From Candidatus Coprenecus sp. (GTDB taxonomy: Bacteria > Bacteroidota > Bacteroidia > Bacteroidales > UBA932), in assembly GCA_045644725.1 (NCBI GenBank), contig JAZRHK010000136.1, forward strand, positions 1-62,744: a stretch of 62,744 nucleotides of DNA, given 5' to 3'. Positions 39,789-57,148 of the stretch are shown in pieces. Both the position numbers and the translations under genes were made by a program. Under the pieces are notes generated by a model. It had not been told where the DNA came from. It searched no databases and saw nothing but the letters and a program-made list of their open reading frames with translations. Positions within the stretch are counted from its first letter, which is position 1. Each line of letters opens with the position of its first letter.

Positions 39789-39800
39789 CTTGTTGTAAGA

Positions 39801-40922: not shown

Positions 40923-40943
40923 ACTTGATAATGTTAATAAGTA

Positions 40944-42149
40944 TTAAAGACCGAGTTTAGCTCTGATTTCCTGAGGGATGGCGTTTTTGTTTACAAGAAC
41001 ATCCATAGTTTTGTATCTTACAAATGACTCAGATACGTACCATACACCCTTATATGTGCCAGATGCACCCCATGAGTTTTTGATGATGTAGTATTTTGTG
41101 CCGTTCTGATCTTTTGCAATACCGTACATATGCATACCGTGGTCATCGGTAGTCTGGTAGTTGTCATAACCAGCCTGACGCATCTCCTGAGTGATGTTCA
41201 ATTCAGGACCAGGGGTAGCAACAGCTTTGCTGGCGTTGCGTGGGTCAGCACCGATCCAGCGAGCCTCATCGCTGCCTGCAGCTTTTTTGATAGCCTCAGT
41301 GTCAGGAACTACACCGATACCGTCGCGGGTGAACCCTTTCTCACTTACGTCAGATGCCCATGCAAGGGTGTAACCATTGTTGAGAGCATTGTCGATGATA
41401 GCCATAAGGTCCTCAAGTGGAACATTGTAAGCTTTTTCCCAACGCCAGTTGTCTGGAACTTCCTGGATGGTCTCAGTATAGTAAGGGATATGTGTCCAAG
41501 AAACGATATCCACATAGTCATCAAGATTGATAGGGAGAGACTCCATATAAGTTTTAGGGGTGTACTCTTTGCCGTCAACTGTAAATTTCTCAGGTCTTGC
41601 ACCAAGATATGCATCAAGGATACCCTGGAAACCTTTTTTCCAAGCTGTAGAGAGCTTTCTGTTAGGGTTTCTGATTATAGCTTTTACGTATGCACCGGTT
41701 ACTGCGTCCATCTCACCGTGAACGTGGATGTCAGTGCCGTAGTTAAGGCCAACCATCTCTGAGTTTGGAACCATACCGTAGTGTTTCATTACGTACAGTG
41801 CATCACCGAATGAGCTGCCGGGTCCGAAATTAAGATTGCCGTGAAGTCTTACATATTTTTCAGCTTTGTCAGCATAAGCGTGAGAAACTACAAACATTTC
41901 TGAAAGGTCGATGTCCTGAGGACCGCCTGCTTTGATAATCTCTGATTCGAAGAATGAAAGGGCAGAGAAGCACCAGCAAGTACCTGTACTGCTCTGGTTT
42001 TTAATTGATGTTACAGGATTTTCAACCACGGTTGTAAATACATAACCTTGAGGTTCTTCCTGTTTAGGAGCTTTTTTCTTTTGTGCAAAAGAATTGACCG
42101 AAAGCATACATACAGATGCGACGATCAGTGCGAAAGATTTTAGGTTCAT
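40944..42149 (-). CDS. secreted C1-family cysteine peptidase (PepC-like), paralog 3 (more divergent)
   Basis: 401 aa with a signal peptide. QSSTGTCWCFSALSF. DDHGMHMYG His region. Confidence 0.75.
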   Translation of the reverse strand: MNLKSFALIVASVCMLSVNSFAQKKKAPKQEEPQGYVFTTVVENPVTSIKNQSSTGTCWCFSALSFFESEIIKAGGPQDIDLSEMFVVSHAYADKAEKYVRLHGNLNFGPGSSFGDALYVMKHYGMVPNSEMVGLNYGTDIHVHGEMDAVTGAYVKAIIRNPNRKLSTAWKKGFQGILDAYLGARPEKFTVDGKEYTPKTYMESLPINLDDYVDIVSWTHIPYYTETIQEVPDNWRWEKAYNVPLEDLMAIIDNALNNGYTLAWASDVSEKGFTRDGIGVVPDTEAIKKAAGSDEARWIGADPRNASKAVATPGPELNITQEMRQAGYDNYQTTDDHGMHMYGIAKDQNGTKYYIIKNSWGASGTYKGVWYVSESFVRYKTMDVLVNKNAIPQEIRAKLGL

Positions 42150-44479: not shown

Positions 44480-46144
44480 ATGGCGTGGATAAATACATTG
44501 TTGTGGGATTCATCCAATATTGCACATATCATATTGCTCTATGCGATAGTGATAACAGTGGGTGTACTTTTAGGAAAAATTAAAATTTTCGGTGTCTCAT
44601 TTGGGGTTACCTTCGTACTTTTCGTAGGGCTTCTGATGGGACACTTCGGTTTTGGAGTGGAGTCGTCGGCTCTCAAGGTGGTCAAGGAGTTCGGACTTAT
44701 ACTTTTTGTCTATTGTGTCGGTCTTCAGGTGGGCCCCTCATTCTTCTCTTCCATGAAACAGGGTGGGGTGAAGCTCAATTCCATAGCTCTTACTATGGTG
44801 GCTCTGAACCTTATATTGGCATTCGGTATCTTCTACCTTGACGGCAGGATAGATTTCCCTATGATTGTGGGTATGCTTTGTGGTGCTGTGACCAATACCC
44901 CTGGTCTTGGTGCAGCAAACGAGGCTCTTGGCCAGATGAGCTATACCGGTGATCCGATAGCACTTGCATACGCCTGTGCATACCCCCTTGGTGTAGTTGG
45001 AATCATAGTTTCCATTGTGATTGTCAGATATCTCTGTAAAGTTAACCTTAAAAAAGAGGAGGATGAGATTCTGGCCAAAACAGCCGACTCGAAGGATGCC
45101 CCCAAATTCCTCTACCTGGAGGTCTCGAATGAAAATCTTGATGGGAAGACCCTTCCACAGGTCAGTGAACTCATAGGAAGAAGCTTTGTGTGCTCACGTA
45201 TCCGTCATGAAGGACACGTCAGTATACCTAATAAGGAGACTCAAGTCTATCTTGGTGATATAATGTATGTGGTCTGCTCTGATGAGGACATGGAGTCAAT
45301 TATCTCATTTATCGGAAAAGAGGTCAATATTGATTGGGAAGCACAGGATGCTCCTCTGGTGTCCAAGAGAATCCTGGTGACCAAAAATGAGATCAATGGC
45401 AAGACCCTTGGCAGTCTTAATCTTAGAAGCATATACGGGGTAAATGTTACCAGAATCCACCGATCAGGGCTCCAATTCTTCGCAGACCCGCATTTCAGGC
45501 TGATGGTGGGTGACAGAATAGTGGTGGTAGGTAGGCAAAGTGATATAGACAGAGTTGGCAATTATCTCGGAAATGAGCTCAAGCACCTTGACTCGCCGCA
45601 GCTGGCTGCTATCTTCGTGGGTATAGCATTGGGTATCATATTCGGCAGTATCCCTATTGCATTCCCAGGTATCCCTACACCAGTCAAGCTTGGATTGTCC
45701 GGAGGACCCCTTATCATAGCTATATTGATAGGAAGTTTCGGATATAAGCTCAAACTGATAACCTATACCACCCAGAGTGCAAATCTTATGTTGAGAGAGG
45801 TGGGTATATCTCTTTTTCTGGCCAGTGTCGGTATTGAATCGGGTGGTGGTTTTATGGATGCGCTTGTCCAGGGTGATGGTGTCCTATATGTAGGATATGG
45901 TCTTCTTCTGACCATGGTACCTATCATTCTGGTGGGTGTGCTGACCAAGTTCTTCCTTAAACTTGACTATTTTACTATTGCAGGTATCATAGCCGGCACC
46001 TACACCAATCCATCTGCCCTCTCATATTCAAGTTCACTATCCAACAAGATAAATACCCCTGCAATCAGCTACTCTACAGTATATCCTCTCGCTATGTTCT
46101 TGAGGATATTGACAGCGCAGGTGCTCATATTGATAATGATGTAG
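44480..46144 (+). CDS. YidE/YbjL (AAE, aspartate:alanine exchanger) family transporter with two central RCK_C/TrkA_C domains
   Basis: 554 aa. Two 5-6 TM halves separated by about 170 cytoplasmic residues containing two ...G.TL..L.....G..V..I.R.G duplicated motifs. Confidence 0.75.
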   Translation: MAWINTLLWDSSNIAHIILLYAIVITVGVLLGKIKIFGVSFGVTFVLFVGLLMGHFGFGVESSALKVVKEFGLILFVYCVGLQVGPSFFSSMKQGGVKLNSIALTMVALNLILAFGIFYLDGRIDFPMIVGMLCGAVTNTPGLGAANEALGQMSYTGDPIALAYACAYPLGVVGIIVSIVIVRYLCKVNLKKEEDEILAKTADSKDAPKFLYLEVSNENLDGKTLPQVSELIGRSFVCSRIRHEGHVSIPNKETQVYLGDIMYVVCSDEDMESIISFIGKEVNIDWEAQDAPLVSKRILVTKNEINGKTLGSLNLRSIYGVNVTRIHRSGLQFFADPHFRLMVGDRIVVVGRQSDIDRVGNYLGNELKHLDSPQLAAIFVGIALGIIFGSIPIAFPGIPTPVKLGLSGGPLIIAILIGSFGYKLKLITYTTQSANLMLREVGISLFLASVGIESGGGFMDALVQGDGVLYVGYGLLLTMVPIILVGVLTKFFLKLDYFTIAGIIAGTYTNPSALSYSSSLSNKINTPAISYSTVYPLAMFLRILTAQVLILIMM

Positions 46145-46145
46145 T

Positions 46146-47033
46146 ATGGGGAAGCTAAGTAAAACATATTGTGTGGCAGGACATCAGTTCTCTTTCGTTA
46201 TGGCGGAGACTTCGCCCCTGTGGAAATATGTTTTTCGTGCATACACCCCTTTTGAATCCATAGAATCCGAAGAGGACCTTTTTTCATTGGAGGTGACAGA
46301 TGTTCTGGAGGTTGTGGATCTGGAACAGATATATGTAGATGAAAATCCGGAACCCGGTTTTGTGAAAATAGCAGTCTACAGGTATCATGGCGGGTATTAC
46401 ATGGAGTTTACCCAGCATGACAGTGTTGAGGTCAATGGAAGAATGACTATGGATGGATATGGAAAGGTGAGACTCACCCTTATTGGTGACGAAATGAACC
46501 AATGGATGACCTTTACAAATATAGCTCAGGTAGTCTACTTTATGCGTACTGCTACATTGGAAACAGTGATGGCCCACGCCTCAGCTGTCCATTATCAGGG
46601 CAAATCATATCTGTTTTTAGGAAAGAGCGGTACAGGAAAAAGTACCCATAGCAGAATGTGGCTTCAAGGGGTAGAGGGATCTGAGCTTATGAACGATGAC
46701 CACCCTATAGTGAGGATTTCCGAGGATGGTACCCCTATTGCATATGGTTCGCCGTGGAGCGGGAAGACCCATTGCTATCACAATATGGCAGCACCCGTAG
46801 GTGCAATCGTGAGAATCCGCCAGGAAAAGGAGAATGCGATCCGCAAGCTCCGCCCTGTTGAGGCATATGGCTCTGTGATGGTCAGTTGCTCGGGATTCCC
46901 TATAGAAGAGAGAATCACAGAGGGGAAGAGCAATACACTTCAAAAGATAGTAAAAGGTACCTCCTGCTGGGAACTTGGCTGCCTGCCCAACGTGGATGCT
47001 GCCATTGTATGCAGGGATGCCGTTTGTCAGTAG
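46146..47033 (+). CDS. P-loop HPr-kinase-like (HprK C-terminal domain-like) protein
   Basis: 295 aa. HASAVHYQGKSYLFLGKSGTGKSTHSRMW resembles the HprK/lasso-kinase 'HA.AV...G.a.l..G.SGaGKST' core, followed by NDDHP. Starts 1 nt after the transporter stop. Confidence 0.55.
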   Translation: MGKLSKTYCVAGHQFSFVMAETSPLWKYVFRAYTPFESIESEEDLFSLEVTDVLEVVDLEQIYVDENPEPGFVKIAVYRYHGGYYMEFTQHDSVEVNGRMTMDGYGKVRLTLIGDEMNQWMTFTNIAQVVYFMRTATLETVMAHASAVHYQGKSYLFLGKSGTGKSTHSRMWLQGVEGSELMNDDHPIVRISEDGTPIAYGSPWSGKTHCYHNMAAPVGAIVRIRQEKENAIRKLRPVEAYGSVMVSCSGFPIEERITEGKSNTLQKIVKGTSCWELGCLPNVDAAIVCRDAVCQ

Positions 47034-47036
47034 CTT

Positions 47037-47492
47037 ATGGGAGAGAAACTTACTATACCGAATTCCATTTTTTTTGCTGAGGTGGAGAGCCACATATCGG
47101 GGGGGAGGAGTGTGGTAATTCCTGTGAAAGGTTACAGCATGCTCCCTTTCATCCGGGATGGCAGGGACAGTGTAGAGCTTGTAGGATGCAAGGAATTGAA
47201 AGTGGGAGATATTGCTTTGGCCAAATTGGGCAATGGCAATTTTGTGCTCCACAGAGTGTGGGAGACAGATGGTGGGAAAGTGGTTCTTATGGGAGATGGC
47301 AATATCGCAGGAAAGGAGGTTTGCAGACACTCTGATATAATTGGTGTAGCCTCCAGGATTTTTAGAGGCAAGAGGGTGATAGACTGCACCTCTGCCGCTT
47401 ATTTGAGAAATGTTAAAATATGGAGGGGGCTCCTCCCTATAAGAAGATATATTCTGGCGGTTTACCGCCGTTTAATAAAATTAGGGCTATGA
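47037..47492 (+). CDS. soluble S24/S26-type serine peptidase-like protein
   Basis: 151 aa. VKGYSMLPFIRDGRDSVELV matches the G-x-S-M-x-P nucleophile motif. No N-terminal TM or signal peptide. 3-nt gap from the kinase-like gene and 4-nt overlap with the next gene. Confidence 0.55.
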   Translation: MGEKLTIPNSIFFAEVESHISGGRSVVIPVKGYSMLPFIRDGRDSVELVGCKELKVGDIALAKLGNGNFVLHRVWETDGGKVVLMGDGNIAGKEVCRHSDIIGVASRIFRGKRVIDCTSAAYLRNVKIWRGLLPIRRYILAVYRRLIKLGL

Positions 47493-47755
47493 GGATTAAA
47501 AAAGGTTTCAAATTAAGGGAAATTATGGGCGAATTTGCCGTTATAGGTGAAGGGCTTGAGCAGGTCAATTTCAATAAGATAATATCTCTCAACAGCACAG
47601 CTGCATACATATGGAGAGAGATCGAGGGGAAGGACTTTGATGCAGAGATGGTGGCAGAGCTGCTTCTTGACAAGTACGAAGTGAGTCGTGAGACAGCATT
47701 GTCAGATGCTACAGTGCTGGTGCGCAAATTGGTGGAAAACGGATTGACCGAATAG
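47489..47755 (+). CDS. PqqD-family protein (RiPP recognition element-like)
   Basis: ATG at 47489 within ORF 47420..47755, giving 88 aa. ...LNSTAAYIWREIEGKDFDAEMVAELLLDKYEVSRETALSDATVLVRKLVENGL is the classic PqqD pattern. Confidence 0.7.
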   Translation: MRIKKGFKLREIMGEFAVIGEGLEQVNFNKIISLNSTAAYIWREIEGKDFDAEMVAELLLDKYEVSRETALSDATVLVRKLVENGLTE

Positions 47756-47760
47756 GCAAA

Positions 47761-49401
47761 ATGGTAATAAAGAGGATTATAAAGATTCTTCCGAAGGAGT
47801 TTTACCGGACGGGTGGCTGGATAGTGGCTTCGGTTCCGGTAAGGGCCCTTTTGAATCTTGTGGGTGTGGCAGCCCTCCTTCCGGTGCTTCAGGTGGTGCT
47901 GGATGATAATCCTACCCGTTTCAGCCCTGTGACCGTATGTTTGGGAGTTCTGGCGGTCATTCTTCTCAAGAATATCCTCAATATTGCCCTGGGGGCATAT
48001 CAGAACAGGTTCCTCCTCAAGATATACAGATACTTTTCCACTGCACTTTTCTCTAATCTGTATCACAAGGGCCTTCTGTATATAAAAGGGCGCAACTCTG
48101 CTGAGATCTCGCACGAGATCAACGGGGTATGCTACTCTTTCTCATTGGGTGTGCTGTCTCCAATTCTGAACATGGCAGGTGAGAGCCTTTTGCTCCTGCT
48201 GATATATATTGGTCTCATTTTCTACTCCCCTGTTGCTTCAGTGCTTGTCCCTGTATGCTTTATTCCGGTGATACTCCTCTATGTCCATATGGTAAAAAAC
48301 AGGGTGCAGAGTTATGGGAAAAAGGAGAATGAGGCGAGAAGGAAGATGTGGAAAACTGTAGTGGAGACCTTCCGGGGTTATGCAGAAGTGGAGGTAAACG
48401 GTGCATTTCCGTCGATTGAAAAGCAATTTGATGAAAATTTGCAGGATATATCGCTGCAACGTGAGAAGATGACTGTAGTCCAGCAGCTCCCAATTACTCT
48501 GATAGAGCTCTCTGTGGTAGGGGCTATGGTTATACTGGTGCTTCTTAGCGGAGCTTTGGAGGGGGACAACCTGAGTGTCATGGTGGGTGTATTTGCCATT
48601 GCTGCCATGAGAATTCTCCCTGCAGTGAGGACTTTGACAAACGGGTGGACATCGGTGAAAAATGGGATGTACAGCCTGGATATCATAGAGCAGGGCCTCT
48701 CTGAAGAGGGCGTGGACAAGAAGATGGATGAACAGTTCAGTTTCTCCTGTGGACTTGAGGTAAGAAATCTGTCTTTTGCATTCCCGGATGGAGAACATAA
48801 GGTATTTGATGATTTCTCTATGTATGTGAGAAAAGGGGAGAAAGTGGGAATCAGAGGCCATTCCGGTGCCGGCAAGACCACCCTTTTCAATTTACTGCTG
48901 GGGTTTTACAGACCGGACAAAGGTGGCATCTATATTGACGGCAAAGAACTGACAGTGGAAAATCGTGCAGGATGGCTCAAATATGCAGGATATGTACAGC
49001 AGGATGTATTTATTCTTGATGCTTCATTGGCTGAGAATATTGCACTTGGTGTAAAAAGCGAGTTGATAGACAGGAACAGGGTCATGAGGGTGATCAAGGA
49101 GGTATCTCTTGCATCTTATCTGGAACAGCTTCCAGATGGTATCGATACTAGAATAGGTGAGATGGGGGCAAAGCTCTCCGGTGGACAGAAGCAGCGTGTA
49201 GGTATTGCCAGAGCACTTTATAAAGGGGCAGATATTTTATTCTTTGACGAGGCTACATCATCACTGGATAGTGCTACAGAGTCAGAAATCAACGAATCTA
49301 TAATGGAACTCTCCTCCCATAGAAAAGACCTGACTATTATTGCAATAGCTCACAGGGAGTCTTCTTTGGCTTTCTGTGACAGGATTATAGAGATTTTCTA
49401 G
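47761..49401 (+). CDS. ABC exporter, fused permease/ATPase (no C39 peptidase domain)
   Basis: 546 aa. Six-TM N-terminal half. Walker A GHSGAGKTT, signature LSGGQKQRVGIARA and Walker B ILFFDEATSSLD. Confidence 0.9.
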   Translation: MVIKRIIKILPKEFYRTGGWIVASVPVRALLNLVGVAALLPVLQVVLDDNPTRFSPVTVCLGVLAVILLKNILNIALGAYQNRFLLKIYRYFSTALFSNLYHKGLLYIKGRNSAEISHEINGVCYSFSLGVLSPILNMAGESLLLLLIYIGLIFYSPVASVLVPVCFIPVILLYVHMVKNRVQSYGKKENEARRKMWKTVVETFRGYAEVEVNGAFPSIEKQFDENLQDISLQREKMTVVQQLPITLIELSVVGAMVILVLLSGALEGDNLSVMVGVFAIAAMRILPAVRTLTNGWTSVKNGMYSLDIIEQGLSEEGVDKKMDEQFSFSCGLEVRNLSFAFPDGEHKVFDDFSMYVRKGEKVGIRGHSGAGKTTLFNLLLGFYRPDKGGIYIDGKELTVENRAGWLKYAGYVQQDVFILDASLAENIALGVKSELIDRNRVMRVIKEVSLASYLEQLPDGIDTRIGEMGAKLSGGQKQRVGIARALYKGADILFFDEATSSLDSATESEINESIMELSSHRKDLTIIAIAHRESSLAFCDRIIEIF

Positions 49402-49410
49402 AACTTGGGA

Positions 49411-49441
49411 TTTGTTTCTTGCTGGAAAATGTTTATATTTG
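49411..49441 (+). promoter_or_regulatory. Bacteroidetes promoter (TTTG -33, 19-nt spacer, TAtaTTTG -7) for the small ORF / lipoprotein pair
   Basis: TTTG at 49411-49414 and TATATTTG at 49434-49441, 30 nt upstream of the ATG at 49471. Confidence 0.5.
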
Positions 49442-49470
49442 CATTAATTTGAATGTAGATAGGAATTATT

Positions 49471-49602
49471 ATGTCAGAGAAAATGAAATCCCCATACATC
49501 TCTCCTGAAATGGAGATTATCGATCTTGTAACAGAATCAGGCTTTTGCTCAAGCAATCCAGGTGGAAATACTCCTGGTCTGGACAATAATACATGGAATT
49601 GA
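49471..49602 (+). CDS. unannotated 43-codon ORF, leader-peptide-like (family member 1)
   Basis: Hand translation gives MSEKMKSPYISPEMEIIDLVTESGFCSSNPGGNTPGLDNNTWN*. It is below the ORF-track size cut-off. It has its own promoter and is homologous at protein level to the small ORFs at 55073-55189 and 56979-57098. An alternative start is ATG at 49483. Confidence 0.55.
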   Translation: MSEKMKSPYISPEMEIIDLVTESGFCSSNPGGNTPGLDNNTWN

Positions 49603-49619
49603 CAAAAGGAGGATGTGAT

Positions 49620-51497
49620 ATGAAAATAGGGGTTAAACTCACTTTTTTTGCGGTATTCTTTTTTGTTATTCACTCATGTGCCAGTTTAGAGAATACATGT
49701 GGTGAGAATATGGGGCTGTATCCTGCGGAGATAGGGGTAAGCATGTCATCCGGTGATAAGACCAAAGTGTATCTTGGTGATTCTGACAATGACAGCAATA
49801 CAACCCCTATATATTGGAGCGACGATGAAAGTGATCAGATTAAAGTAAAGGTTGATGGTGTGGACTACATTTTTCAAAAGGTAGGAAATACATCCAATTC
49901 AAAAAATGCAAAGTTCAGATGCGAATTGGCACCGGCGGTAGAGGCTGGAAAGACCTATACAGCCACATATAGCAGTGACGGGTTCAATTCAATCGGGTAT
50001 TACCAAAGTGGAACTATAAGCTCTCTTAAGGATCATATTGATCTTTCAGCAACATATACAGCTAAGGAGGGTGATACATGGAATGATGTGGTATTCAATT
50101 TTCAGATGGAGCGTGCTATAGTGAAAATCACCATAAGAAGTGATATTGTGAATGATGTTGGAGTTGGTGTTGATCTTATGGAGGATGGAAAGGGCCTTGT
50201 CACCTCCACCAGTACTGTTGAACTCTCTCAGGAAGGTGTTGCCGAGTTCTACTTTGTCTTGGAACCCAGAGAGTACAATGAAATTACCATGGAGGTTACT
50301 TTGTATATATGTGGAGATCCTCTAAATTTCCAAACCAGGGTGATTAGATATGAGATGAGTGATATCACTATTAGGAGGAACAATATGTACTATGTAGAGA
50401 AGCAGCTTCTGTCAGATACGAGTATAGAGGAAAATTTTAATATCGTCAAGCTCTCAGGAGAGGACAACAGTTCTACTGCAAATTCATATATATTGAATCC
50501 TGTAACCGACAATCCCGTACTTGGTAAAGATAACACTATCTACAGAATATACGCCAAATACAAAGGGAACAGCTCTTCCGTATCTGATGAGATCGGTTCA
50601 CGTATCAAAAAGGTAAAAGTGTTGTGGGAGTCAGATGGAACAAATTCACCTCTTGCTCAAGGGGCAATTATAACCCGTGCGATATGGCATAATGACTTCA
50701 TCTACTTTGACATTAATGGATCAGGTGCTGAAGGAAATGCACTTATAGGTGCATTTGATGGTGATGGCAATATAGTGTGGTCATGGCATATCTGGGTTAC
50801 AGATACCCCTCAAGAGCATCAATATGAAGATAATGACGGTATAGTCTTCGGTACTTATATGGACAGGAACTTGGGTGCATTAAGAGCTGATGGTACCGCA
50901 GTGGAAAATAGTGGCCTTTTCTATCAGTGGGGGAGAAAAGATCCGTTCCTTCCCGGTAATGTCTCATGCGCAATGATGGAAGGCGCTTCATGGAATAAAG
51001 TGAGAGTGGATAACGCCACCGGATCAATAGCTTATGCAACAGAGCACCCTATGACTTATTTGTACAGTACAGCATCTCCATTCACCTGGATTTATCTCTC
51101 TGCAGGAGAATCTGTGCAAAGTTCTATGTGGGGGGCATCCAAGACTGTATACGACCCTTGCCCCTACGGATGGAAAGTGACAGAAAGTAATCTTGGAAAC
51201 AATATAGATGTCTCTTCCGGTAGGGGTTCATTCAATTCCACAACAGGCAATTATGAACTCAAGTACAAAAAAGATAAGGGAGATGTGGCATATTTCCCAA
51301 CTTCAGGGCGATATTCGTATTCTACAGGTGAATGGATACAGGCTGGACTGGCCGGTTTCTATTGGTCTTCAACAGTTTCCCGTGACAGCGAGATAAGACC
51401 TGCATGCAGTTTCTATTTTGATGATCAGGGTAACGTGAATCCTGCGAGAACATATTTCTTCGCGGAAGGTGCTTCCGTAAGGTGTAAAAAAATGTAG
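49620..51497 (+). CDS. surface lipoprotein with fimbrillin-like N-terminal part and C-terminal FISUMP-like (Fibrobacter succinogenes major paralogous) domain
   Basis: ATG at 49620 (MKIGVKLTFFAVFFFVIHSC, lipobox). C-terminal motifs MDRNLGA, LFYQWGRKDPF, DPCPYGWKV, GFYWSST and GASVRCKK. Confidence 0.55.
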   Translation: MKIGVKLTFFAVFFFVIHSCASLENTCGENMGLYPAEIGVSMSSGDKTKVYLGDSDNDSNTTPIYWSDDESDQIKVKVDGVDYIFQKVGNTSNSKNAKFRCELAPAVEAGKTYTATYSSDGFNSIGYYQSGTISSLKDHIDLSATYTAKEGDTWNDVVFNFQMERAIVKITIRSDIVNDVGVGVDLMEDGKGLVTSTSTVELSQEGVAEFYFVLEPREYNEITMEVTLYICGDPLNFQTRVIRYEMSDITIRRNNMYYVEKQLLSDTSIEENFNIVKLSGEDNSSTANSYILNPVTDNPVLGKDNTIYRIYAKYKGNSSSVSDEIGSRIKKVKVLWESDGTNSPLAQGAIITRAIWHNDFIYFDINGSGAEGNALIGAFDGDGNIVWSWHIWVTDTPQEHQYEDNDGIVFGTYMDRNLGALRADGTAVENSGLFYQWGRKDPFLPGNVSCAMMEGASWNKVRVDNATGSIAYATEHPMTYLYSTASPFTWIYLSAGESVQSSMWGASKTVYDPCPYGWKVTESNLGNNIDVSSGRGSFNSTTGNYELKYKKDKGDVAYFPTSGRYSYSTGEWIQAGLAGFYWSSTVSRDSEIRPACSFYFDDQGNVNPARTYFFAEGASVRCKKM

Positions 51498-51504
51498 GGC
51501 CAGA

Positions 51505-51978
51505 TTATATCGGGTAGATCTCTGCCCCAGTGAAGTCAAACAGGTCTTGGGGGGATATCCTTAACTGGAGCCCTCTGAGACCTGCGCTTATATAGATGTG
51601 GTCATACAGGAGGGCAGATTCGTGGATGAAGGTGGGATAAGGCTTCTTCATCCCGATAGGGGTGCACCCTCCACGGATGTATCCGGTGTTTGGAAGGAGC
51701 TCTTTCATCGGAATCAGGTCGCAGTTCTTGTTACCTGATATTTTGGCAGCCACCTTCAGGTCTACCTCAAAGTTCCCTGGGATGACACACACGAAGAGCC
51801 CATTTTTGTCTCCACGCAGGACAAGGGTCTTGAAAACCTGTTCTATGTTCTGACCAAGTTGTTCTGCGACATGATCTGCCGCAAGATTCGATTCATCCAC
51901 TTCATATGGGATAAGTTCGTATGTTATCCCCGCTTTGTCCAGAAGGCGGGCAGCATTGGTCTTCTCTATTTTTCCCAT
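51505..51978 (-). CDS. ybaK: Cys-tRNA(Pro)/Cys-tRNA(Cys) deacylase YbaK
   Basis: 157 aa. KTNAARLLDKAGI.YE...Y, FKTLV and GGCTPIG motifs. Confidence 0.85.
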   Translation of the reverse strand: MGKIEKTNAARLLDKAGITYELIPYEVDESNLAADHVAEQLGQNIEQVFKTLVLRGDKNGLFVCVIPGNFEVDLKVAAKISGNKNCDLIPMKELLPNTGYIRGGCTPIGMKKPYPTFIHESALLYDHIYISAGLRGLQLRISPQDLFDFTGAEIYPI

Positions 51979-52952
51979 TTGTCGAGTGCCTCCTTCATGA
52001 GTTCCCTCCCTTTTTTTGCTATCTCTTTGGCTCTTGAATAGTCGGATATCTCCCCATATGCGTCGAATGGCATACGGACCAGAACATCAGGATTATATTT
52101 GGAGATAGTAATTTCACTTATTGTATGGTTCATAAGACTGAATGTCCTGTCCAGAAGTGAATAGTAGTTGTCTCCTAAAGAGAAGTCAGTGGAACTGTCT
52201 TTGGATATGCTCTCAGAAATGACCTTTTTACCATATATTCCTGCGAGTTTTACCCTTTCACCAAACGTTAGTGTTTCATTGTTTTTGATTGAGTCCAGAA
52301 GTTTTCTATTCTCAAGTTGTCTCTCTTTCTCGAGAATCATCTTCTCCTGTTCATCTCTATGTCTTTGGACTATGGCAGCCTGCATCTCTGTAACATTGAC
52401 ATCGTTTACATCAAATGCCACTAGAATGTCCTTCCCGTTTCTTACCACTCTATTGATAGGTAGTGAGTTCACTATTCCACCATCAACCAAGGTTCTTAGC
52501 CCTTGTTTGACTGGCCTGAACAGGGATGGAATGGATATTGAGGCGCGGATTGCATCAAAAAGATTCCCCTCAGAGTAGACTATCTCCTCTCCTGTATACA
52601 GATCGGCAGCTACCGCCCTGAATGGTATTTTCAGATCCCGGATATCTATATCTGGTATTATCTCTTTAATTGCATTGATAATCTTGTCTCCTTTTACAAT
52701 GTGGTTTTTGCTTAGGGACAGATCCATTAATCCGAAAACTTTCCATGCGTTGAGGTTGTAAAGCCACTCCTTGAGCTCATCAAGTCTCCCTGTGGCATAA
52801 ATGCCGCCTATCAGTGAGCCCATAGATGTTCCTGCTACTGATGTTATATTGTAACCTCTCCTTTCGAGTTCTTCGATCGCTCCGATATATGCAAATCCTC
52901 TGGGGCCGCCGCTTGAGAGCACTAATGCTACATCTTGTCTGATAGGTTTCAT
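51966..52952 (-). CDS. patatin-like phospholipase
   Basis: 328 aa. Oxyanion SSGGPRG, nucleophile GTSMGS and DGG Asp motif. Confidence 0.8.
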   Translation of the reverse strand: MKPIRQDVALVLSSGGPRGFAYIGAIEELERRGYNITSVAGTSMGSLIGGIYATGRLDELKEWLYNLNAWKVFGLMDLSLSKNHIVKGDKIINAIKEIIPDIDIRDLKIPFRAVAADLYTGEEIVYSEGNLFDAIRASISIPSLFRPVKQGLRTLVDGGIVNSLPINRVVRNGKDILVAFDVNDVNVTEMQAAIVQRHRDEQEKMILEKERQLENRKLLDSIKNNETLTFGERVKLAGIYGKKVISESISKDSSTDFSLGDNYYSLLDRTFSLMNHTISEITISKYNPDVLVRMPFDAYGEISDYSRAKEIAKKGRELMKEALDKWEK

Positions 52953-52989
52953 AGTGAAATGTATTTACTCAACAAAGATAATAATTTTC

Positions 52990-52997
52990 TAACTTTG
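52990..52997 (+). promoter_or_regulatory. Bacteroidetes -7 box (TAacTTTG)
   Basis: Exact TAnnTTTG match 27 nt upstream of the ATG at 53024. Confidence 0.4.
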
Positions 52998-53023
52998 TTT
53001 CGAAAATCAATTATTTCGCACTT

Positions 53024-54031
53024 ATGGAGATACTCAAGAGGTTATTCAGGAAATATGTTGTAGACGCATTGAGCTATATGGCCCTGGGTCTGTTCTGCTC
53101 ATTGATATTGGGCCTAATAGTGGGGCAGTTGGCGAAAATGGAGTTTCTGGGCTTTCTGGGCTTTATTGCGGAGGCTCTCTCTGCAAGTTCTCCTCTGGTG
53201 GGTGCCTGCATAGGCTTTGCAATAGTGCTGGGGCTGAAGTATGCCCCCCTTGTGACCATATCTTCAGCGATAGTAGGTGCACTCGGTTATAAATATGGCG
53301 GCCCTGTTGGCTCATACTTTGCAGTGATAATAGCAGCGAGGGTGGGTGAACTTATCTCCAAAAAGACCCCTGTAGATATCATCCTTACCCCACTGGTCAC
53401 TATTGTAGTGGGTGGACTTATTGCCAGATATTGCTGCTCTCCGATCAATGATTTTATGCTCTATCTGGGGAGCCTCATCAACAATGCCACAAATCTCAGC
53501 CCATTCTTGATGGGGATTGTGGTCTCTATCCTGGTGGGTTGTGCACTTACCCTCCCAATCAGTTCTGCAGCCCTCTGCATTATGCTCGGGATAGATGGCC
53601 TTGCTGCCGGTGCTGCCACAGTAGGGTGCTGTGCCCAGATGGTGGGATTTGCCGTGATAAGTTTCAGGGACAATGGGGTAGGAGGGCTCCTTTCTCAGGG
53701 GCTCGGAACCTCAATGCTGCAGATAGGCAATATTGTTCGCAAACCAATAATATGGCTTGCACCGACCCTCACTGCTGCCATCCTTGGACCCGTTTCCACA
53801 GTGGTGTTCGGGATGACCAACAATGCCCTCGGTGCTGGTATGGGTACCTCCGGCCTTGTAGGGTCTATTGCGTCCTATGCCGATATGACTGCAGCTGGAG
53901 GCGATTCTACCGCCATAATAATAAAAATAGCGGTGCTACATTTCGTAGCACCGGCTATCATTTCTCTTTTCATCCATTTGGGAATGACCAGACTCGGCTG
54001 GGTCAAAAATGGTGATATGAAGATAGGGTAG
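53024..54031 (+). CDS. polytopic membrane protein, PTS EIIC-like (PTS_EIIC_2 type)
   Basis: 335 aa, Gly/Ala-rich, with about 9-10 TM segments. The assignment is from overall resemblance only. Confidence 0.4.
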   Translation: MEILKRLFRKYVVDALSYMALGLFCSLILGLIVGQLAKMEFLGFLGFIAEALSASSPLVGACIGFAIVLGLKYAPLVTISSAIVGALGYKYGGPVGSYFAVIIAARVGELISKKTPVDIILTPLVTIVVGGLIARYCCSPINDFMLYLGSLINNATNLSPFLMGIVVSILVGCALTLPISSAALCIMLGIDGLAAGAATVGCCAQMVGFAVISFRDNGVGGLLSQGLGTSMLQIGNIVRKPIIWLAPTLTAAILGPVSTVVFGMTNNALGAGMGTSGLVGSIASYADMTAAGGDSTAIIIKIAVLHFVAPAIISLFIHLGMTRLGWVKNGDMKIG

Positions 54032-54037
54032 TGGGGG

Positions 54038-55042
54038 TTAAATATGTGAATCACTCTCTGTTACAGTCCATCCTGTACTAGGCAGTCTGTATGCTTTGCC
54101 CACAACTATGTTTTTATCTGTAACAGGTACAAGCAATTCGTATTTGTAATATTTTGAGGATGATTTGTATCTTACGTGGAATGCCCAACTTGAAGTTGGT
54201 TTTTTAATCATAAGTTCATTTTTGAAAGCAAAACAATAGGAAATGTCCTCCCCATTGACCACACATCCGGCATCGCCTGTAGCAGTACTCCTGTCAAAAA
54301 CAAATCCATGTGTCTCAGTAGGATTGAATGATAATGCATCTTTTTTAAGTGCGACCACTGCCCAATTCGCTTCAGTGGTGCTGTTCACAATGGATATAGT
54401 TGACTCTTCCATATATGCTTCATCGTGGCCTGAGGGCATACCAGTCAACTCTCTTGGAACAGAGATCTGGAAAAGTCTTGGATCAATATTAAGAGTCACA
54501 GAACCGAGAGAGACAACGCCATCAGTAACTGTATATGTGCCGGTACCTTTCATAAATTCACCTCCGTTATAATTAAGTAGTGGATATGTACCTTCTTTCT
54601 CAAACCAGTTGCCAACATTGTTTGTACCTTTTATAAAGTAAGTTTCGTCCTTCGTGCCATGAGTAAGCATTTCTCCTCTGTGGTGTATGGCCATCCACTC
54701 ACCACCTTCCCCTAAGTTAGATGTAATTGTATTATTGAGCACAATCTCAGACCATCCTGTTATAGATGAATAGACGGTGTAAGCAGCTTTTATGTATGGA
54801 GTTCCACCTAAAGTTCCTCCGTACCAATTTGCTCCAGTTGGTTTGAATACAAACACCACCCAATCCCCATTGGCCCATTCGGATTTTACAGCTTTAGTGA
54901 GATTCCCGCTGAAATCTGGTCTGTCTGATATTGTAAATACAGCTTTTGTACCCTCATTCTCCATTGGGGAGTCAATCTTTTGGCACCCTGATGCAGTTAC
55001 CACCAATGCGATAACTGCCATAATAAGATTTCTCATTTTCAT
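54038..55042 (-). CDS. fimbrillin-like lipoprotein, paralog A (downstream of small ORF 2)
   Basis: 334 aa. Lipobox VVTASGC. ...TKAVKSEWANGDWVVFVF... N-terminal pattern. Clear paralog of 55982..56947. Confidence 0.55.
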   Translation of the reverse strand: MKMRNLIMAVIALVVTASGCQKIDSPMENEGTKAVFTISDRPDFSGNLTKAVKSEWANGDWVVFVFKPTGANWYGGTLGGTPYIKAAYTVYSSITGWSEIVLNNTITSNLGEGGEWMAIHHRGEMLTHGTKDETYFIKGTNNVGNWFEKEGTYPLLNYNGGEFMKGTGTYTVTDGVVSLGSVTLNIDPRLFQISVPRELTGMPSGHDEAYMEESTISIVNSTTEANWAVVALKKDALSFNPTETHGFVFDRSTATGDAGCVVNGEDISYCFAFKNELMIKKPTSSWAFHVRYKSSSKYYKYELLVPVTDKNIVVGKAYRLPSTGWTVTESDSHI

Positions 55043-55072
55043 AATTGTCCTTTTTATCAGTTATACATTTGG

Positions 55073-55189
55073 TTACCATTGTTCTTCTCCATCAAATCCG
55101 TCATAATTTGGTGATGCGGCAAAACCCTGTTCCACCGACATTTCGACTACCTCCAGCAGAGGAGCTTCGTAAAGTTTCAGTTTTTCCAT
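55073..55189 (-). CDS. unannotated 38-codon ORF, leader-peptide-like (family member 2)
   Basis: Hand translation gives MEKLKLYEAPLLEVVEMSVEQGFAASPNYDGFDGEEQW*. It ends 30 nt upstream of the lipoprotein ATG at 55042. Confidence 0.55.
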   Translation of the reverse strand: MEKLKLYEAPLLEVVEMSVEQGFAASPNYDGFDGEEQW

Positions 55190-55232
55190 AGGCTTATATT
55201 TTATGTTTGTATGTAACTACTGACTTTTTTTT

Positions 55233-55264
55233 CAAATATACCTTTTTTTTGGTTAATCGTCAAA
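55233..55264 (-). promoter_or_regulatory. Bacteroidetes promoter on minus strand (TTTG, 20-nt spacer, TAtaTTTG) for small ORF 2 / lipoprotein A
   Basis: Plus-strand CAAATATA at 55233-55240 and CAAA at 55261-55264. The -7 box lies 44 nt upstream of the ATG at 55189. Confidence 0.5.
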
Positions 55265-55312
55265 CAAGTACGAATTTTGAAGTGCATTATTGAAATATTT
55301 CAGAAAAAATAT

Positions 55313-55320
55313 TATATTTG
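55313..55320 (+). promoter_or_regulatory. Bacteroidetes -7 box (TAtaTTTG) upstream of ferritin
   Basis: Exact TAnnTTTG match 38 nt upstream of the ATG at 55358. Confidence 0.45.
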
Positions 55321-55357
55321 CGATAGGAAATAATTATAAATAAAGAATAAACAAATT

Positions 55358-55876
55358 ATGATCAGCGAAAAACTACACAAAGCAATCAATGACCAGATCA
55401 ATGCAGAACTTTGGTCAGCATATTTGTATCTCTCAATGTCTATGGACGCTGAGGAGAAGAACTATAAAGGAGTGGCCAACTGGTTCCATATCCAGTTCCA
55501 GGAGGAGCAGGCTCACGCACGTATCTTCATGAACTACCTTAACTCAGTAGAGGCTAAAGTGGAACTCAAACCTATTGAGGGAGTTCAGACTACCTGGGAT
55601 TCAGTTTTGGATATGTTCAAATCTACCCTTGAGCACGAGAAGAAAGTATCTGCACTTATCCGTAACCTTATGAGCATAGCTAAAGAGGATCATGACTACG
55701 CAGCAGAGAGCAAACTCAAATGGTTCATCGAGGAGCAGGTGGAAGAGGAAGAGGCTGCAAGGGATATCATCTTCGCTGTAGAGTCAGTCGGTAACAGCAA
55801 AAATGATATGTATATCCTTGATAAGGAGTTGGCAGCACGTGTATACAATGTGCCTGCCCCACTAGCTGGCAAGTAG
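55358..55876 (+). CDS. ftnA: non-heme ferritin
   Basis: 172 aa. ...INAELWSAYLYLSM...WF..Q..EE..HA..F..Y ferroxidase-centre pattern. Confidence 0.9.
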   Translation: MISEKLHKAINDQINAELWSAYLYLSMSMDAEEKNYKGVANWFHIQFQEEQAHARIFMNYLNSVEAKVELKPIEGVQTTWDSVLDMFKSTLEHEKKVSALIRNLMSIAKEDHDYAAESKLKWFIEEQVEEEEAARDIIFAVESVGNSKNDMYILDKELAARVYNVPAPLAGK

Positions 55877-55921
55877 CCTTTTAAAGGGTGATTTCTGCGT
55901 TACGCTCGATTCGGAAATATA

Positions 55922-55955
55922 AGGGAGACTAATCTGTTTAAGAATTAGTCTCCCT
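55922..55955. terminator. bidirectional terminator hairpin between ferritin (+) and lipoprotein B (-)
   Basis: 12-bp perfect stem AGGGAGACTAAT / ATTAGTCTCCCT with T-rich flanks on both strands. Confidence 0.6.
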
Positions 55956-55981
55956 CTTTCTTCAAAAATAAGCCGTCTTAT

Positions 55982-56947
55982 TTATTTGGTCCATCCAGTG
56001 AGTGGTAGTCGATATGATTTTCCAATTTTGATAGAATGGTCATTTCTGTCAATGTTGATTGATGCGAAACTTGCAGCATTTTCTCCATTTGTAATTGAGA
56101 ATACTAAATCTGTAAATGTTGCATCTTCTGGTTTGCTGAATACAAAGCAGTAAGACACATCTTCACCGTTTAATACCCCCTCAGCAAAACCAGATTTTGT
56201 TGAATTGTCAAGCCAAAAGCCATTGGTGGTTTGTGGAGCCAAATAAAGCACCCCTCTTTTAAGGGCCACAACTCTATATAGATCTTCCGGTGATGAATTT
56301 TGTTTTATGGATAATCTAAATTTCAGGTTTTTGAACCAGGTAGAATATGCGTTATTAAATATAGGGTTGCTACTCCCATCTGTAATGTCTTTGCTCACTG
56401 AAAATTGGAATAAAGAACTATACAGCTGTAAGTCTATTGTGGATAGTGTAATTGTAGTACCGTCCGATGTGTAAGTTCCTTTATGGGACATAAATTCTCC
56501 TCCTTTATATCCATCAAGCTGGTATCCGTTATAGGTGTTAGGTGCAGTACCTACTTCAGAGGGAATAGCTTTAGCTGTTACCTTCCCTCTATGGTGGATG
56601 GCCAGATAAGTGCCACTTTCGCCCAAGTCAGTTATATTTTGAGAAGTGAGAGTTATATCTGACCACACAGATGATGTATAGGTTGTCGTGAATTTATAAA
56701 GGGCATCTTCCATAGGCCCATACCAATTTGTAGCCCCTGCAGGTTTGAAAATTATCATGACCGAATCCCCCTCTGCCCAAGCTGTTTTGACCGCTTTTGT
56801 CTGGCCTGGGTCGCCAAGTACAGGTTTGTCTGCGATGGTGAATTTTACTTTTACTGTGCTATTTGAGTCGGCTCTGTCGATTTTTTGACATCCTGAAGCA
56901 GTTATAACCAATGCGATAACTGCCATAATGATATTTCTAAATTTCAT
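55982..56947 (-). CDS. fimbrillin-like lipoprotein, paralog B (downstream of small ORF 3)
   Basis: 321 aa. Lipobox VITASGC. TKAVKTAWAEGDSVMIIF. Collinear with paralog A through to the C-terminal ...YRLP.TGWT. Confidence 0.55.
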   Translation of the reverse strand: MKFRNIIMAVIALVITASGCQKIDRADSNSTVKVKFTIADKPVLGDPGQTKAVKTAWAEGDSVMIIFKPAGATNWYGPMEDALYKFTTTYTSSVWSDITLTSQNITDLGESGTYLAIHHRGKVTAKAIPSEVGTAPNTYNGYQLDGYKGGEFMSHKGTYTSDGTTITLSTIDLQLYSSLFQFSVSKDITDGSSNPIFNNAYSTWFKNLKFRLSIKQNSSPEDLYRVVALKRGVLYLAPQTTNGFWLDNSTKSGFAEGVLNGEDVSYCFVFSKPEDATFTDLVFSITNGENAASFASINIDRNDHSIKIGKSYRLPLTGWTK

Positions 56948-56978
56948 AATTGTCCTTTTTTATCAGTTATACATTTGG

Positions 56979-57098
56979 TTACCATTGTTCTTCCCCTTCA
57001 AATCCGTCATAATTTGGCGATGCGGCAAAACCCTGTTCCACCGACATTTCGACTACCTCTAGCAGAGGAGCTTCGTAGAATTGATTTTCCTTCTTCAT
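56979..57098 (-). CDS. unannotated 39-codon ORF, leader-peptide-like (family member 3)
   Basis: Hand translation gives MKKENQFYEAPLLEVVEMSVEQGFAASPNYDGFEGEEQW*. It ends 31 nt upstream of the lipoprotein ATG at 56947. Confidence 0.55.
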   Translation of the reverse strand: MKKENQFYEAPLLEVVEMSVEQGFAASPNYDGFEGEEQW

Positions 57099-57148
57099 AG
57101 TGTTGGCTTTTAAATGTTTGTTTGCAATTTACCTAAAATTTTCCTTGG

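Follow-up and report, generated by a model that had tools for sequence, protein, structure and literature searches.

The 62,744-nucleotide (nt) contig JAZRHK010000136.1 of Candidatus Coprenecus sp. (assembly GCA_045644725.1), called the window here, carries three short open reading frames (ORFs) that encode peptides of about 40 amino acids (aa). P1 (49471–49602, forward strand; 43 aa) is of a divergent ESGFCSS subtype and is the first gene of its module, and P2 (55073–55189; 38 aa) and P3 (56979–57098; 39 aa) lie on the reverse strand. Each is followed on its own strand by a gene for a signal peptidase II (SPII) lipoprotein with a pilin-like N-terminal domain, and four tightly packed genes, K, S, Q and A, which we call the hub, lie 5′ of P1. 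The three ORFs had been proposed in an initial annotation of the window made from the sequence, and they are present at those positions with exactly the translations that it gave. Sequence comparisons indicate that P1–P3 are real protein-coding genes of a large Bacteroidales family of small peptides; members of this family are paired with lipoprotein genes, and the pairs recur in or beside hub operons of other genomes.

The regular expression that the initial annotation had derived from the three peptides matches only P1, P2 and P3 when run over the six-frame translation of the window. With a family hidden Markov model (HMM) the hits in the window are again P1–P3 (E = 1e-14 to 1e-15), with no fourth member, and a degenerate DNA pattern for the peptide core gives two matches in the window against 0.00 expected from shuffles. 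Further homologs, which that annotation had suggested looking for, are abundant: a first profile built from P1–P3 recovered 48 close homologs (unnamed, 32–71 aa), and HMMER, run exhaustively over 1.84 billion representatives, returned 2,614 representative clusters (counted at 50% identity, E <= 0.001), nearly all of 32–70 aa and none of them named. Pfam, NCBIfam and Rfam hold no family that covers the peptides, and the peptides match no Pfam or NCBIfam model. The DNA pattern, which constrains Y and P, three hydrophobic second positions, D/E and EQGFA and nothing else, was also scanned against one genome per species and yielded at least 117 loci, with about 94 family ORFs among the matches listed; the counts out of 92 or 94 loci given below draw on these. 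About 25 of the 117 were discarded as an unrelated LOG-like protein of about 200 aa from Rhodobacterales (HVIEQGFAD). This protein (...PGGAGSLDEFFEVLTW...YWxPLxxLxDHVIEQGFA...), seen in L015, L022, L024, L032 and about 20 other Rhodobacterales loci, is a case of chance convergence on a short motif. Carriers among the matches listed are Alistipes, Ca. Egerieisoma, other Rikenellaceae, Bacteroidaceae, Phocaeicola, Prevotellaceae, Odoribacter and one Flavobacteriales metagenome-assembled genome (MAG), and a peptide identical to P3 is present in L123 (Ca. Coprenecus). Bacteroides rodentium JCM 16496 (L094) is a carrier that is in culture. Two typical Bacteroidales modules lie on contigs binned as Firmicutes, namely Faecalimonas sp. 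and Faecalibacterium prausnitzii (L057 and L062); these probably reflect binning contamination and not an occurrence outside Bacteroidota.

The family consensus core is Y-x-x-P-x-h-E-h-h-E-h-x-V-E-Q-G-F-A-x-S, followed by a short variable tail rich in acidic, Gly and aromatic residues. Tails of the matches listed are 6–28 aa long, rich in Gly, Glu, Asp, Pro, Asn and Trp and free of Cys, and an aromatic residue falls within the last four positions in 81 of 96 peptides. The alignment of P1–P3 in the initial annotation, with its Gly/Asn/Asp-rich tails and near-terminal Trp, was reproduced and is valid family-wide, and its description of a conserved N-terminal recognition-type segment with a variable tail is supported by the homologs. 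Tyr and Pro are invariant and position 5 is V, I, L, F or M in 94 of 94 peptides, all three being fixed by the search pattern. Positions outside the pattern are also conserved: Glu6 in 82 of 94, Val, Ile or Leu at position 12 in 92 of 94, and at position 19 Ser in 87 and Thr in seven, never Ala or Gly.

The core sits in an ORF of 33–63 aa (median 41 aa) in all 94 loci listed, up to 36 different codons occur per free core position, and the entropy of free codons is 1.45, 1.23 and 1.77 at codon positions 1, 2 and 3. Ser19 is encoded by TCN as well as AGY codons across the family. Coding-type substitution was confirmed in orthologs: between P1 and the peptide P0005 of the syntenic locus L207 (L210 is also syntenic), the proportions of synonymous (pS) and nonsynonymous (pN) changes in frame are 0.36 and 0.13, a pN/pS of 0.35, and in the two other frames pS is no greater than pN. 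Tails compared within tail types give a pooled pN/pS of 0.29, a value biased downward in pN by the grouping according to tail similarity. It is because free residues are conserved, Ser is drawn from two codon families, pN/pS is frame-specific and ORFs are intact that we assign coding status to the peptides. The initial annotation had reached protein-level conservation by another route, from P1 differing from P2 and P3 mostly at third positions, which is incorrect: of the seven core residues identical in P1 and P3, five share the codon, one differs at position 3 only and the last is a Ser encoded by AGC versus TCG. Its conclusion stands on the family-wide and orthologous data and not on the three window copies.

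P2 and P3 share a block of about 200 bp at about 95% DNA identity (54990–55171 versus 56895–57077, reverse strand), which begins at the Tyr codon and extends past the stop and the whole 30-nt spacer into the lipoprotein signal peptide, up to the lipobox Cys. Outside the block the two loci have diverged: their upstream DNA differs, and the mature lipoproteins are 39% identical at the aa level. So similar a block points to gene conversion or to a recombination handle, and P2 and P3 were therefore not used as a pair to test for selection on the protein. A similar block of 215 nt lies between the P1 orthologs. Such blocks, together with the presence and absence of whole cassettes described below, would also suit conserved DNA that is open by chance, either a promoter-proximal element or a recombination handle for lipoprotein swapping. 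Third-position variability with amino-acid conservation, the two Ser codon families, the frame-specific pN/pS and the intact ORF at every locus listed make this non-coding explanation hardly credible.

The pairing of the peptide with a downstream pilin-like lipoprotein is near-obligatory; it was overlooked in the initial annotation, and any functional model must explain it. The next gene encodes an SPII lipoprotein on the same strand in 91 of 92 loci, at a gap of −35 to +60 nt. In the window, the P1 partner (49620–51497, forward strand) is a 625-aa SPII lipoprotein with a pilin-like N-domain (HMM E = 7e-8) and a FISUMP-like C-terminal region, the P2 partner (54038–55042, reverse strand) is a pilin-like SPII lipoprotein of 334 aa that begins 30 nt 3′ of P2, and the P3 partner (55982–56947, reverse strand) is an SPII lipoprotein of 321 aa. 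Partners among the matches listed range from 209 to 1,336 aa. Their post-Cys consensus, C-[STQN]-K-[DE]-[ED], resembles the Bacteroidota surface-export signal. The C-terminal parts are heterogeneous (in 77 partners, Mfa_like_1 occurs in 16, the BspA-type LRR_5/HupY adhesin domain in 13 and DUF4465 in six, and a few carry FISUMP, Big_2, fn3 or BACON). The N-terminal domain is shared: an iterative profile seeded on the P3 partner matches 90 of 92 partners, those of P1, P2 and P3 among them. Of 83 control lipoproteins encoded in the same loci it matches ten. The motif [TS][RK]...[WFY]xxGDx[ILV] is found in 61 of 92 partners versus five of these 83 controls. NCBIfam fim_Mfa1_fam is matched by three of the 77, and the partners of P1–P3 match no curated Pfam or NCBIfam family, fimbrillin models included.

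A sequence search with the P3 partner against the Protein Data Bank (PDB) found nothing, and a fold search was needed. Its AlphaFold2 (AF2) model (mean predicted local distance difference test score, pLDDT, 75.6) is a two-domain β-protein, for which the top Foldseek matches are the B. fragilis proteins BF2867 (4h40) and BF1861 (3sy6), both Bacteroides fimbrial/adhesin structures, with E values of 2e-6 to 9e-6, a probability of 1.00 and template-modelling (TM) scores of 0.31–0.36. In the model, lipobox Cys20 is followed by a strand (residues 32–35), a disordered loop (43–50), T50-K51-A52 and W57..GD, a predicted layout that parallels that of type V prepilins, with a predicted processing site. 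Like the type V pilins FimA and Mfa1, the partners are SPII lipoproteins, for which a short strand near the N-terminus and a flexible loop are predicted, and their [TS]-[RK], located some 25–35 residues after the lipobox Cys, is comparable to the Arg46/Arg49 sites at which the type V prepilins, themselves lipoproteins, are cleaved to open a groove for the donor strand (PMC8512630). Unlike type V pilins, the window partners match no fimbrillin model and the global TM scores of the P3 partner model are low, and large adhesin-type C-terminal extensions are common among partners.

The hub begins with K (46146–47033, forward strand), a predicted HprK/PEPCK-like P-loop phosphotransferase with the signature H-x-S...GxSGTGKST...NDD, in which His144, Ser146, Gly159–Thr167 and Asn183–Asp185 are invariant. 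The reference motif of HprK/P consists of a P-loop GxSGxGKS(T/E) with a conserved His before it and (L/I)xDD after it. The AF2 model of K (pLDDT 90.7) matches PEPCK (TMq about 0.5) and HprK/P (1ko7) in Foldseek with a probability of 1.00. Pfam PF27840 'ScmC' is precomputed for the window protein and for many homologs, and NCBIfam matches are weak (TIGR04249 ScmC, E = 5.9e-6; TIGR04352, E = 1.2e-3), the best scores against the curated HprK_rel_A and ScmC models being 25.8 and 18.1 bits, below the cut-offs of 125 and 200. At 90% identity the K family falls into more than 7,500 clusters, and every name given to them is 'hypothetical'. S (47037–47492, forward strand) is a Ser/His S24/S26-like peptidase resembling endoplasmic reticulum (ER)-type and archaeal signal peptidase I (SPase I), with the invariant boxes KGxSMxP (K31-G32-x-S34-M35-x-P37), LHR[VI] (H72-R73) and GDGN (G86-D87-G88). 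Its best NCBIfam match is TIGR02228, archaeal-type signal peptidase I (E = 4.4e-8, 33.1 bits versus a cut-off of 51.85), and against the Pfam S24 cut-off of 23.3 the window protein scores 19.5 and its homolog in L138 scores 26.4. The S alignment has no N-terminal hydrophobic or transmembrane segment, and the enzyme is therefore probably cytoplasmic or peripheral. Sequence searches of the PDB with K and S found nothing.

Q (47489–47755, forward strand) encodes the PqqD-family protein that the initial annotation had noted upstream of P1. The gene is real (PF05402, E = 1.7e-14), and its ORF ends 1.7 kb 5′ of P1. The protein, of 88 aa, is predicted to be a recognition element (RRE) for peptides that are synthesized ribosomally and then modified post-translationally (RiPPs) and also gives weak matches to lasso PqqD models and to TIGR04248 ScmD (E = 6.4e-4). 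Its start, the Met that matches homologs, lies within a frame open from 47420 and gives a 4-nt overlap with the stop codon of S. A (47761–49401, forward strand) is a half-size ATP-binding cassette (ABC) exporter with a six-transmembrane-helix domain and a nucleotide-binding domain (ABC_membrane and ABC_tran) and without a C39 peptidase domain. A permease gene with Asp-Al_Ex and TrkA_C domains (44480–46144, forward strand) ends 1 nt before K; the adjacency is kept in L208, L210 and L211 and not in more distant hubs, and the permease may be co-transcribed with the hub in this lineage.

A metagenome scan with K gave more than 532 relatives. Within 7 kb in 47 hub loci of at least 8 kb each, K was found in 44, S in 40, Q in 38 and A in 31, usually in the order K>S>Q>A, and the only further recurrent neighbour was an NTP_transf_5 gene (ten loci; Pfam E = 1.9e-37). 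Among the matches listed, hub genes lie within seven of about 90 peptide-centred 8-kb blocks (L034, L036, L040, L045, L059, L084 and L108) against about 0.4 per 90 blocks estimated by chance for one hub of about 4 kb per genome of about 3 Mb. A strict EQGFA-type HMM gave one match only around 80 hubs, and a relaxed leader regular expression was used there, with false positives left out of the counts. It revealed a broader leader superfamily, for example MKKMNKMYEAPKAEVIEV... (MKKMNKxYEAPxAE[VM]IE[LV]...), that lacks EQGFA and has the same Y-x-x-P-x3-h-h-E-h core, often a Ser at Y+19 or Y+20, and a lipoprotein gene next downstream; the true family therefore exceeds the 2,614 clusters counted. 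Such peptides, each paired with a lipoprotein, sit inside the hub operon in six loci (L135 7701–7829, L138 12849–12986, L143 12934–13083, L152 6733–6849, L170 8674–8814 and L191 12329–12481), in shuffled gene orders. Modules thus lie in or beside a hub in at least 13 independent loci, seven peptide-centred and six hub-centred, in addition to the window. The window holds three modules, one Egerieisoma MAG holds at least six, and hub L208 and peptide locus L110 belong to the same MAG. Since most hubs lack a nearby precursor and genomes carry several modules, comparison of these gene arrangements suggests that one hub acts in trans on several scattered modules.

The initial annotation had likened the leader motif to the YxxPxL signature of lasso peptides and had proposed the upstream PqqD protein as the cognate RRE. 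In lasso precursors YxxPxL spans −17 to −12 and the leader is bound by the PqqD-type protein B1; HPr-kinase homologs phosphorylate the linear precursor, their target being a Ser at the C-terminus or, for BsfA, Ser3 of the core, B1 accelerates the latter reaction, and a nucleotidyltransferase can glycosylate the phosphate (PMC8498205; PMC10368454). If the lasso register is applied to the family, the core starts at Y+17, which gives Q(−3)G(−2)F(−1) followed by A(+1)x(+2)S(+3). Ser/Thr19, invariant and free of the search pattern, then falls at core +3 and so coincides with the BsfA phospho-site. Downstream of Ser19 there is no other Ser or Thr in 22 of 98 peptides among the matches listed, and a C-terminal Ser occurs in one of the 98. 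The family resembles the phosphorylated and phosphoglycosylated lasso clusters (paeninodin, pseudomycoidin, Bradymonas BsfA) in its small precursor with Y-x-x-P-x-L-type leader spacing, its stand-alone PqqD and HPr-kinase homologs, its optional nucleotidyltransferase and its D-type ABC exporter.

True lasso precursors, with cyclase and B2 protease encoded elsewhere, would share the Y-x-x-P-x-[VIL] register and would find lasso counterparts in the B1-like PqqD-type RRE, the HPr-kinase-like enzyme, NTP_transf_5 and the D-type exporter of the hub; an Ala at core position 1 and a core length of 9–31 (median 17) are also in line with this. The defining features of lasso biosynthesis fail, however. 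No asparagine-synthetase-like cyclase and no transglutaminase-like B2 protease recurs within 7 kb of the 47 hubs or is present in the window hub operon (44480–51497), and a different protease type, the Ser/His S24/S26-like peptidase, is conserved in the protease slot. Asp or Glu as ring acceptor at core 7–9 is at chance level (62 of 98 among the matches listed versus 57 expected from within-tail shuffles, range 45–71), and P1 has none. Position −2, in lasso precursors Thr and rarely Ile or Val, is Gly in 94 of 94 peptides listed, where the pattern requires it; P1 and its orthologs, selected without the pattern, have Gly there too. Unlike lasso precursors, moreover, the peptides are found mostly without linkage to the enzymes, in multiple copies and always paired with a lipoprotein gene, and they belong to the phylum Bacteroidota. 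On five features, including the cyclase, the B2 protease, the ring acceptor and the −2 Gly, a lasso identity was rejected; it is very improbable and already largely refuted. The system thus resembles the B1–K–N–D part of phosphorylated-lasso pathways and not a lasso pathway as such. The upstream PqqD as cognate RRE fares better, being indirectly favoured by the recurrent linkage of hub and modules across many divergent genomes and by the leader spacing. Linkage of the precursor to an RRE and modifying enzymes, a general feature of RRE-dependent RiPPs, is found in the window and 13 further loci, and most modules and most hubs are unlinked.

Two other kinds of system show partial likeness. As in the SynChlorMet ScmC/ScmD and HPr-rel-A systems, an HprK-like P-loop protein co-occurs with a PqqD-like peptide chaperone; unlike in those systems, the NCBIfam scores of the hub proteins are far below curated cut-offs and radical-SAM partners are absent. 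To our knowledge, the peptidase, the ABC exporter and the peptide–lipoprotein modules are not part of SynChlorMet or HPr-rel-A cassettes. In Bacillus subtilis, the dedicated ER-type signal peptidase SipW works with TasA/TapA fibres, and here too a Ser/His SPase-I-like enzyme has a genetic link to surface proteins of the fibre or adhesin type. Hub S differs from SipW in that it lacks an N-terminal membrane anchor and its presumed substrate is a signal-less peptide of 40 aa and not a secreted fibre protein.

The DNA around the modules bears on a different explanation, in which the peptide ORF acts in cis as an upstream ORF that serves expression of the lipoprotein (by coupling or by nascent-peptide or leader control) and the hub acts elsewhere. 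The peptide always lies directly 5′ of the lipoprotein gene, at a very short spacer, and most modules are not near a hub. A TATATTTG box, a Bacteroidota-type −7 promoter element, lies 37 nt 5′ of the P1 ATG (49434–49441, forward strand) and another 51 nt 5′ of the P2 ATG (55233–55240, reverse strand); both are exact TAnnTTTG, the 25 nt around the P1 box are 100% conserved in the ortholog, and the boxes are predicted to act as promoters. TAnnTTTG occurs at −90 to −20 in 20 of 95 family loci among the matches listed versus 3.7 expected, which often puts the peptide first in its transcription unit, and the spacer itself is too short for a promoter. Over 20 locus pairs the median DNA identity is 0.83 in the peptide core, 0.89 in the spacer and 0.86 in the signal peptide versus 0.61 in the mature lipoprotein body, and the 15-codon P1 tail with the spacer shows zero synonymous changes between orthologs, the pS of the neighbouring gene being 0.64. 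The spacer between P1 and its lipoprotein (49603–49619) contains a strong Shine–Dalgarno-like AAAGGAGGA and is 94% conserved in the ortholog; Shine–Dalgarno sequences are rarely used by Bacteroidota. Predicted RNA folding at the peptide–lipoprotein junction is not significant (z of 0.16 and −1.95) and Rfam gives no match there at E <= 0.1, and an RNA element at the junction was rejected on these grounds. The conserved part of the peptide, furthermore, is its N-terminal 20 residues and not the stop-proximal end that is conserved in known arrest or attenuator peptides, and the tail varies from 6 to 28 aa in length. Action in cis also leaves unexplained the modules inside hub operons in shuffled orders, the YxxP register and the Ser/Thr-only position, and we regard it as unlikely.

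The reading that we prefer is that P1–P3 are substrates of the dedicated hub, are probably phosphorylated and exported, and act with the pilin-like partners; from gene content, comparative genomics and analogy we give it a probability of roughly 55%. We infer binding, phosphorylation, cleavage, export and partner interaction as follows. The PqqD RRE would bind the YxxP segment, and the HprK/PEPCK-like kinase would then phosphorylate a hydroxyl, most likely that of the Ser/Thr at Y+19 (core +3 in the lasso register), with the NTP_transf_5 enzyme possibly decorating the product at the phosphate further in some genomes. The soluble Ser/His S24/S26-like peptidase could cut a small-residue junction around G-F-A-x-S, and the ABC exporter would move the product out of the cytoplasm. 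In the least certain step, the exported peptide might act on or with the co-encoded pilin-like lipoprotein.

Several observations weigh against this reading. In about 39 of the 47 long hub loci no precursor can be recognised over 10 kb, and the majority of peptide modules lie at a distance from any hub, so that the link between hub and peptide rests on a minority of loci together with analogy. The guessed −3/−1 cleavage rule fits GFAAS and fits some related leaders (ILNGS, VFMGS) poorly. The peptides have no signal peptide, and contact with an extracytoplasmic lipoprotein would require export. In a comparison of the peptide profile with the partner, hhalign gave a probability of 0.1% and no similar partner segment; the idea that the peptide mimics a pilin strand in sequence was rejected on this result. 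Finally, the 5′ part of the module is kept at the nucleotide level, synonymous junction sites included, and part of this constraint may act on DNA or RNA, or reflect recombination, and not concern peptide function. A more specific version, which we put forward only tentatively, holds that the hub, lasso-derived, lasso-less and widespread in Bacteroidales, makes short phosphorylated peptides that would be dedicated extracytoplasmic partners of type-V-pilin-like lipoproteins, with cassettes swapped as units; the peptide might, for example, occupy, prime or cap the pilin groove, or license surface display.

The modules are present or absent between close relatives and therefore behave as gain/loss cassettes. 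L208 and L209, syntenic with the window from the three Peptidase_C1 genes to YhhN and with a K 72% identical, are without all three modules, and blastn of these loci with the module segments 49401–51504, 54032–55357 and 55877–57148 found no trace; L210 and L211 retain the P1 module alone. No mobility genes are visible around the modules. The three Peptidase_C1/C1_2-like genes of the window (38667–42149, reverse strand), tandem paralogs of the aminopeptidase C type, encode 373, 373 and 401 aa, and their arrangement is also kept in L208.

Cassette gain and loss between close relatives is common in loci of conflict or communication, and the peptides might accordingly be exported bacteriocins or signal-type RiPPs, with the lipoprotein as immunity protein or receptor. 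The hub evidence serves this proposal just as it serves the preferred one, purifying selection acts on the tails, which vary and are specific to their type, and lantibiotics have lipoprotein immunity proteins (LanI). Partners of about 200–1,336 aa with adhesin-type domains are, however, unlike compact immunity proteins; acidic, Cys-free tails, down to 6 aa in length, are atypical of membrane-active bacteriocins; and several different modules per genome are found with one hub. We consider a bacteriocin or signal function unlikely.

The peptide could instead remain in the cytoplasm as an escort that binds the nascent prelipoprotein or its signal peptide and times or routes its export, with the hub regulating it by phosphorylation and cleavage. 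The strict 1:1 gene pairing and co-transcription anatomy, the absence of a signal peptide from the peptide itself, and the joint conservation of peptide, spacer and lipoprotein signal peptide all agree with this. So does an ORF in a Ca. Egerieisoma MAG (L018 3983–4966, forward strand), in which a leader-like segment (...YETPQVELIEVQVEQGFANS) continues in frame into a FISUMP-like body of the partner type, of about 300 aa, that has no signal peptide and is homologous to the C-terminal region of the P1 partner (E = 1e-5); the fusion is a single MAG case and could be natural or a deletion or assembly artefact. The ABC exporter is, however, a core component of the hub (31 of 47 loci) and suggests that the peptide leaves the cytoplasm, and we know of no precedent for peptide escorts of lipoproteins. 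Such a role appears quite unlikely.

A literature search found the peptide motif in no paper, and a search for PqqD, HPr kinase, Bacteroidetes, fimbrillin and small ORFs, together with the family libraries, yielded no description of the system. Nor does the type V fimbria literature searched, PMC8512630 included, mention a gene for a small peptide upstream or a hub with PqqD and kinase. Taken from its gene content, the system is a predicted RRE-dependent peptide-maturation system in an unprecedented genetic partnership with pilin-like lipoproteins.

For annotation, the gain is that genes of about 40 aa, which fall below the usual ORF cut-offs and are unnamed when called, could be annotated in their thousands by a simple HMM. 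Gut Bacteroidales (Alistipes, Rikenellaceae, Bacteroides, Phocaeicola and Prevotellaceae) colonise by means of variable surface adhesins and type V pili, and the maturation and display of such lipoproteins are poorly understood outside Porphyromonas. If the link between hub and peptide is true, it would provide a RiPP-type pathway that is new, in a phylum where few RiPPs have been characterised, a concrete substrate for an orphan pair of PqqD- and HprK-like enzymes, and a connection between peptide maturation and the biology of surface adhesins. If the partnership with the lipoproteins is functional, it would represent a new role for a RiPP, as an assembly or display factor for adhesins and not as an antibiotic or a signal.

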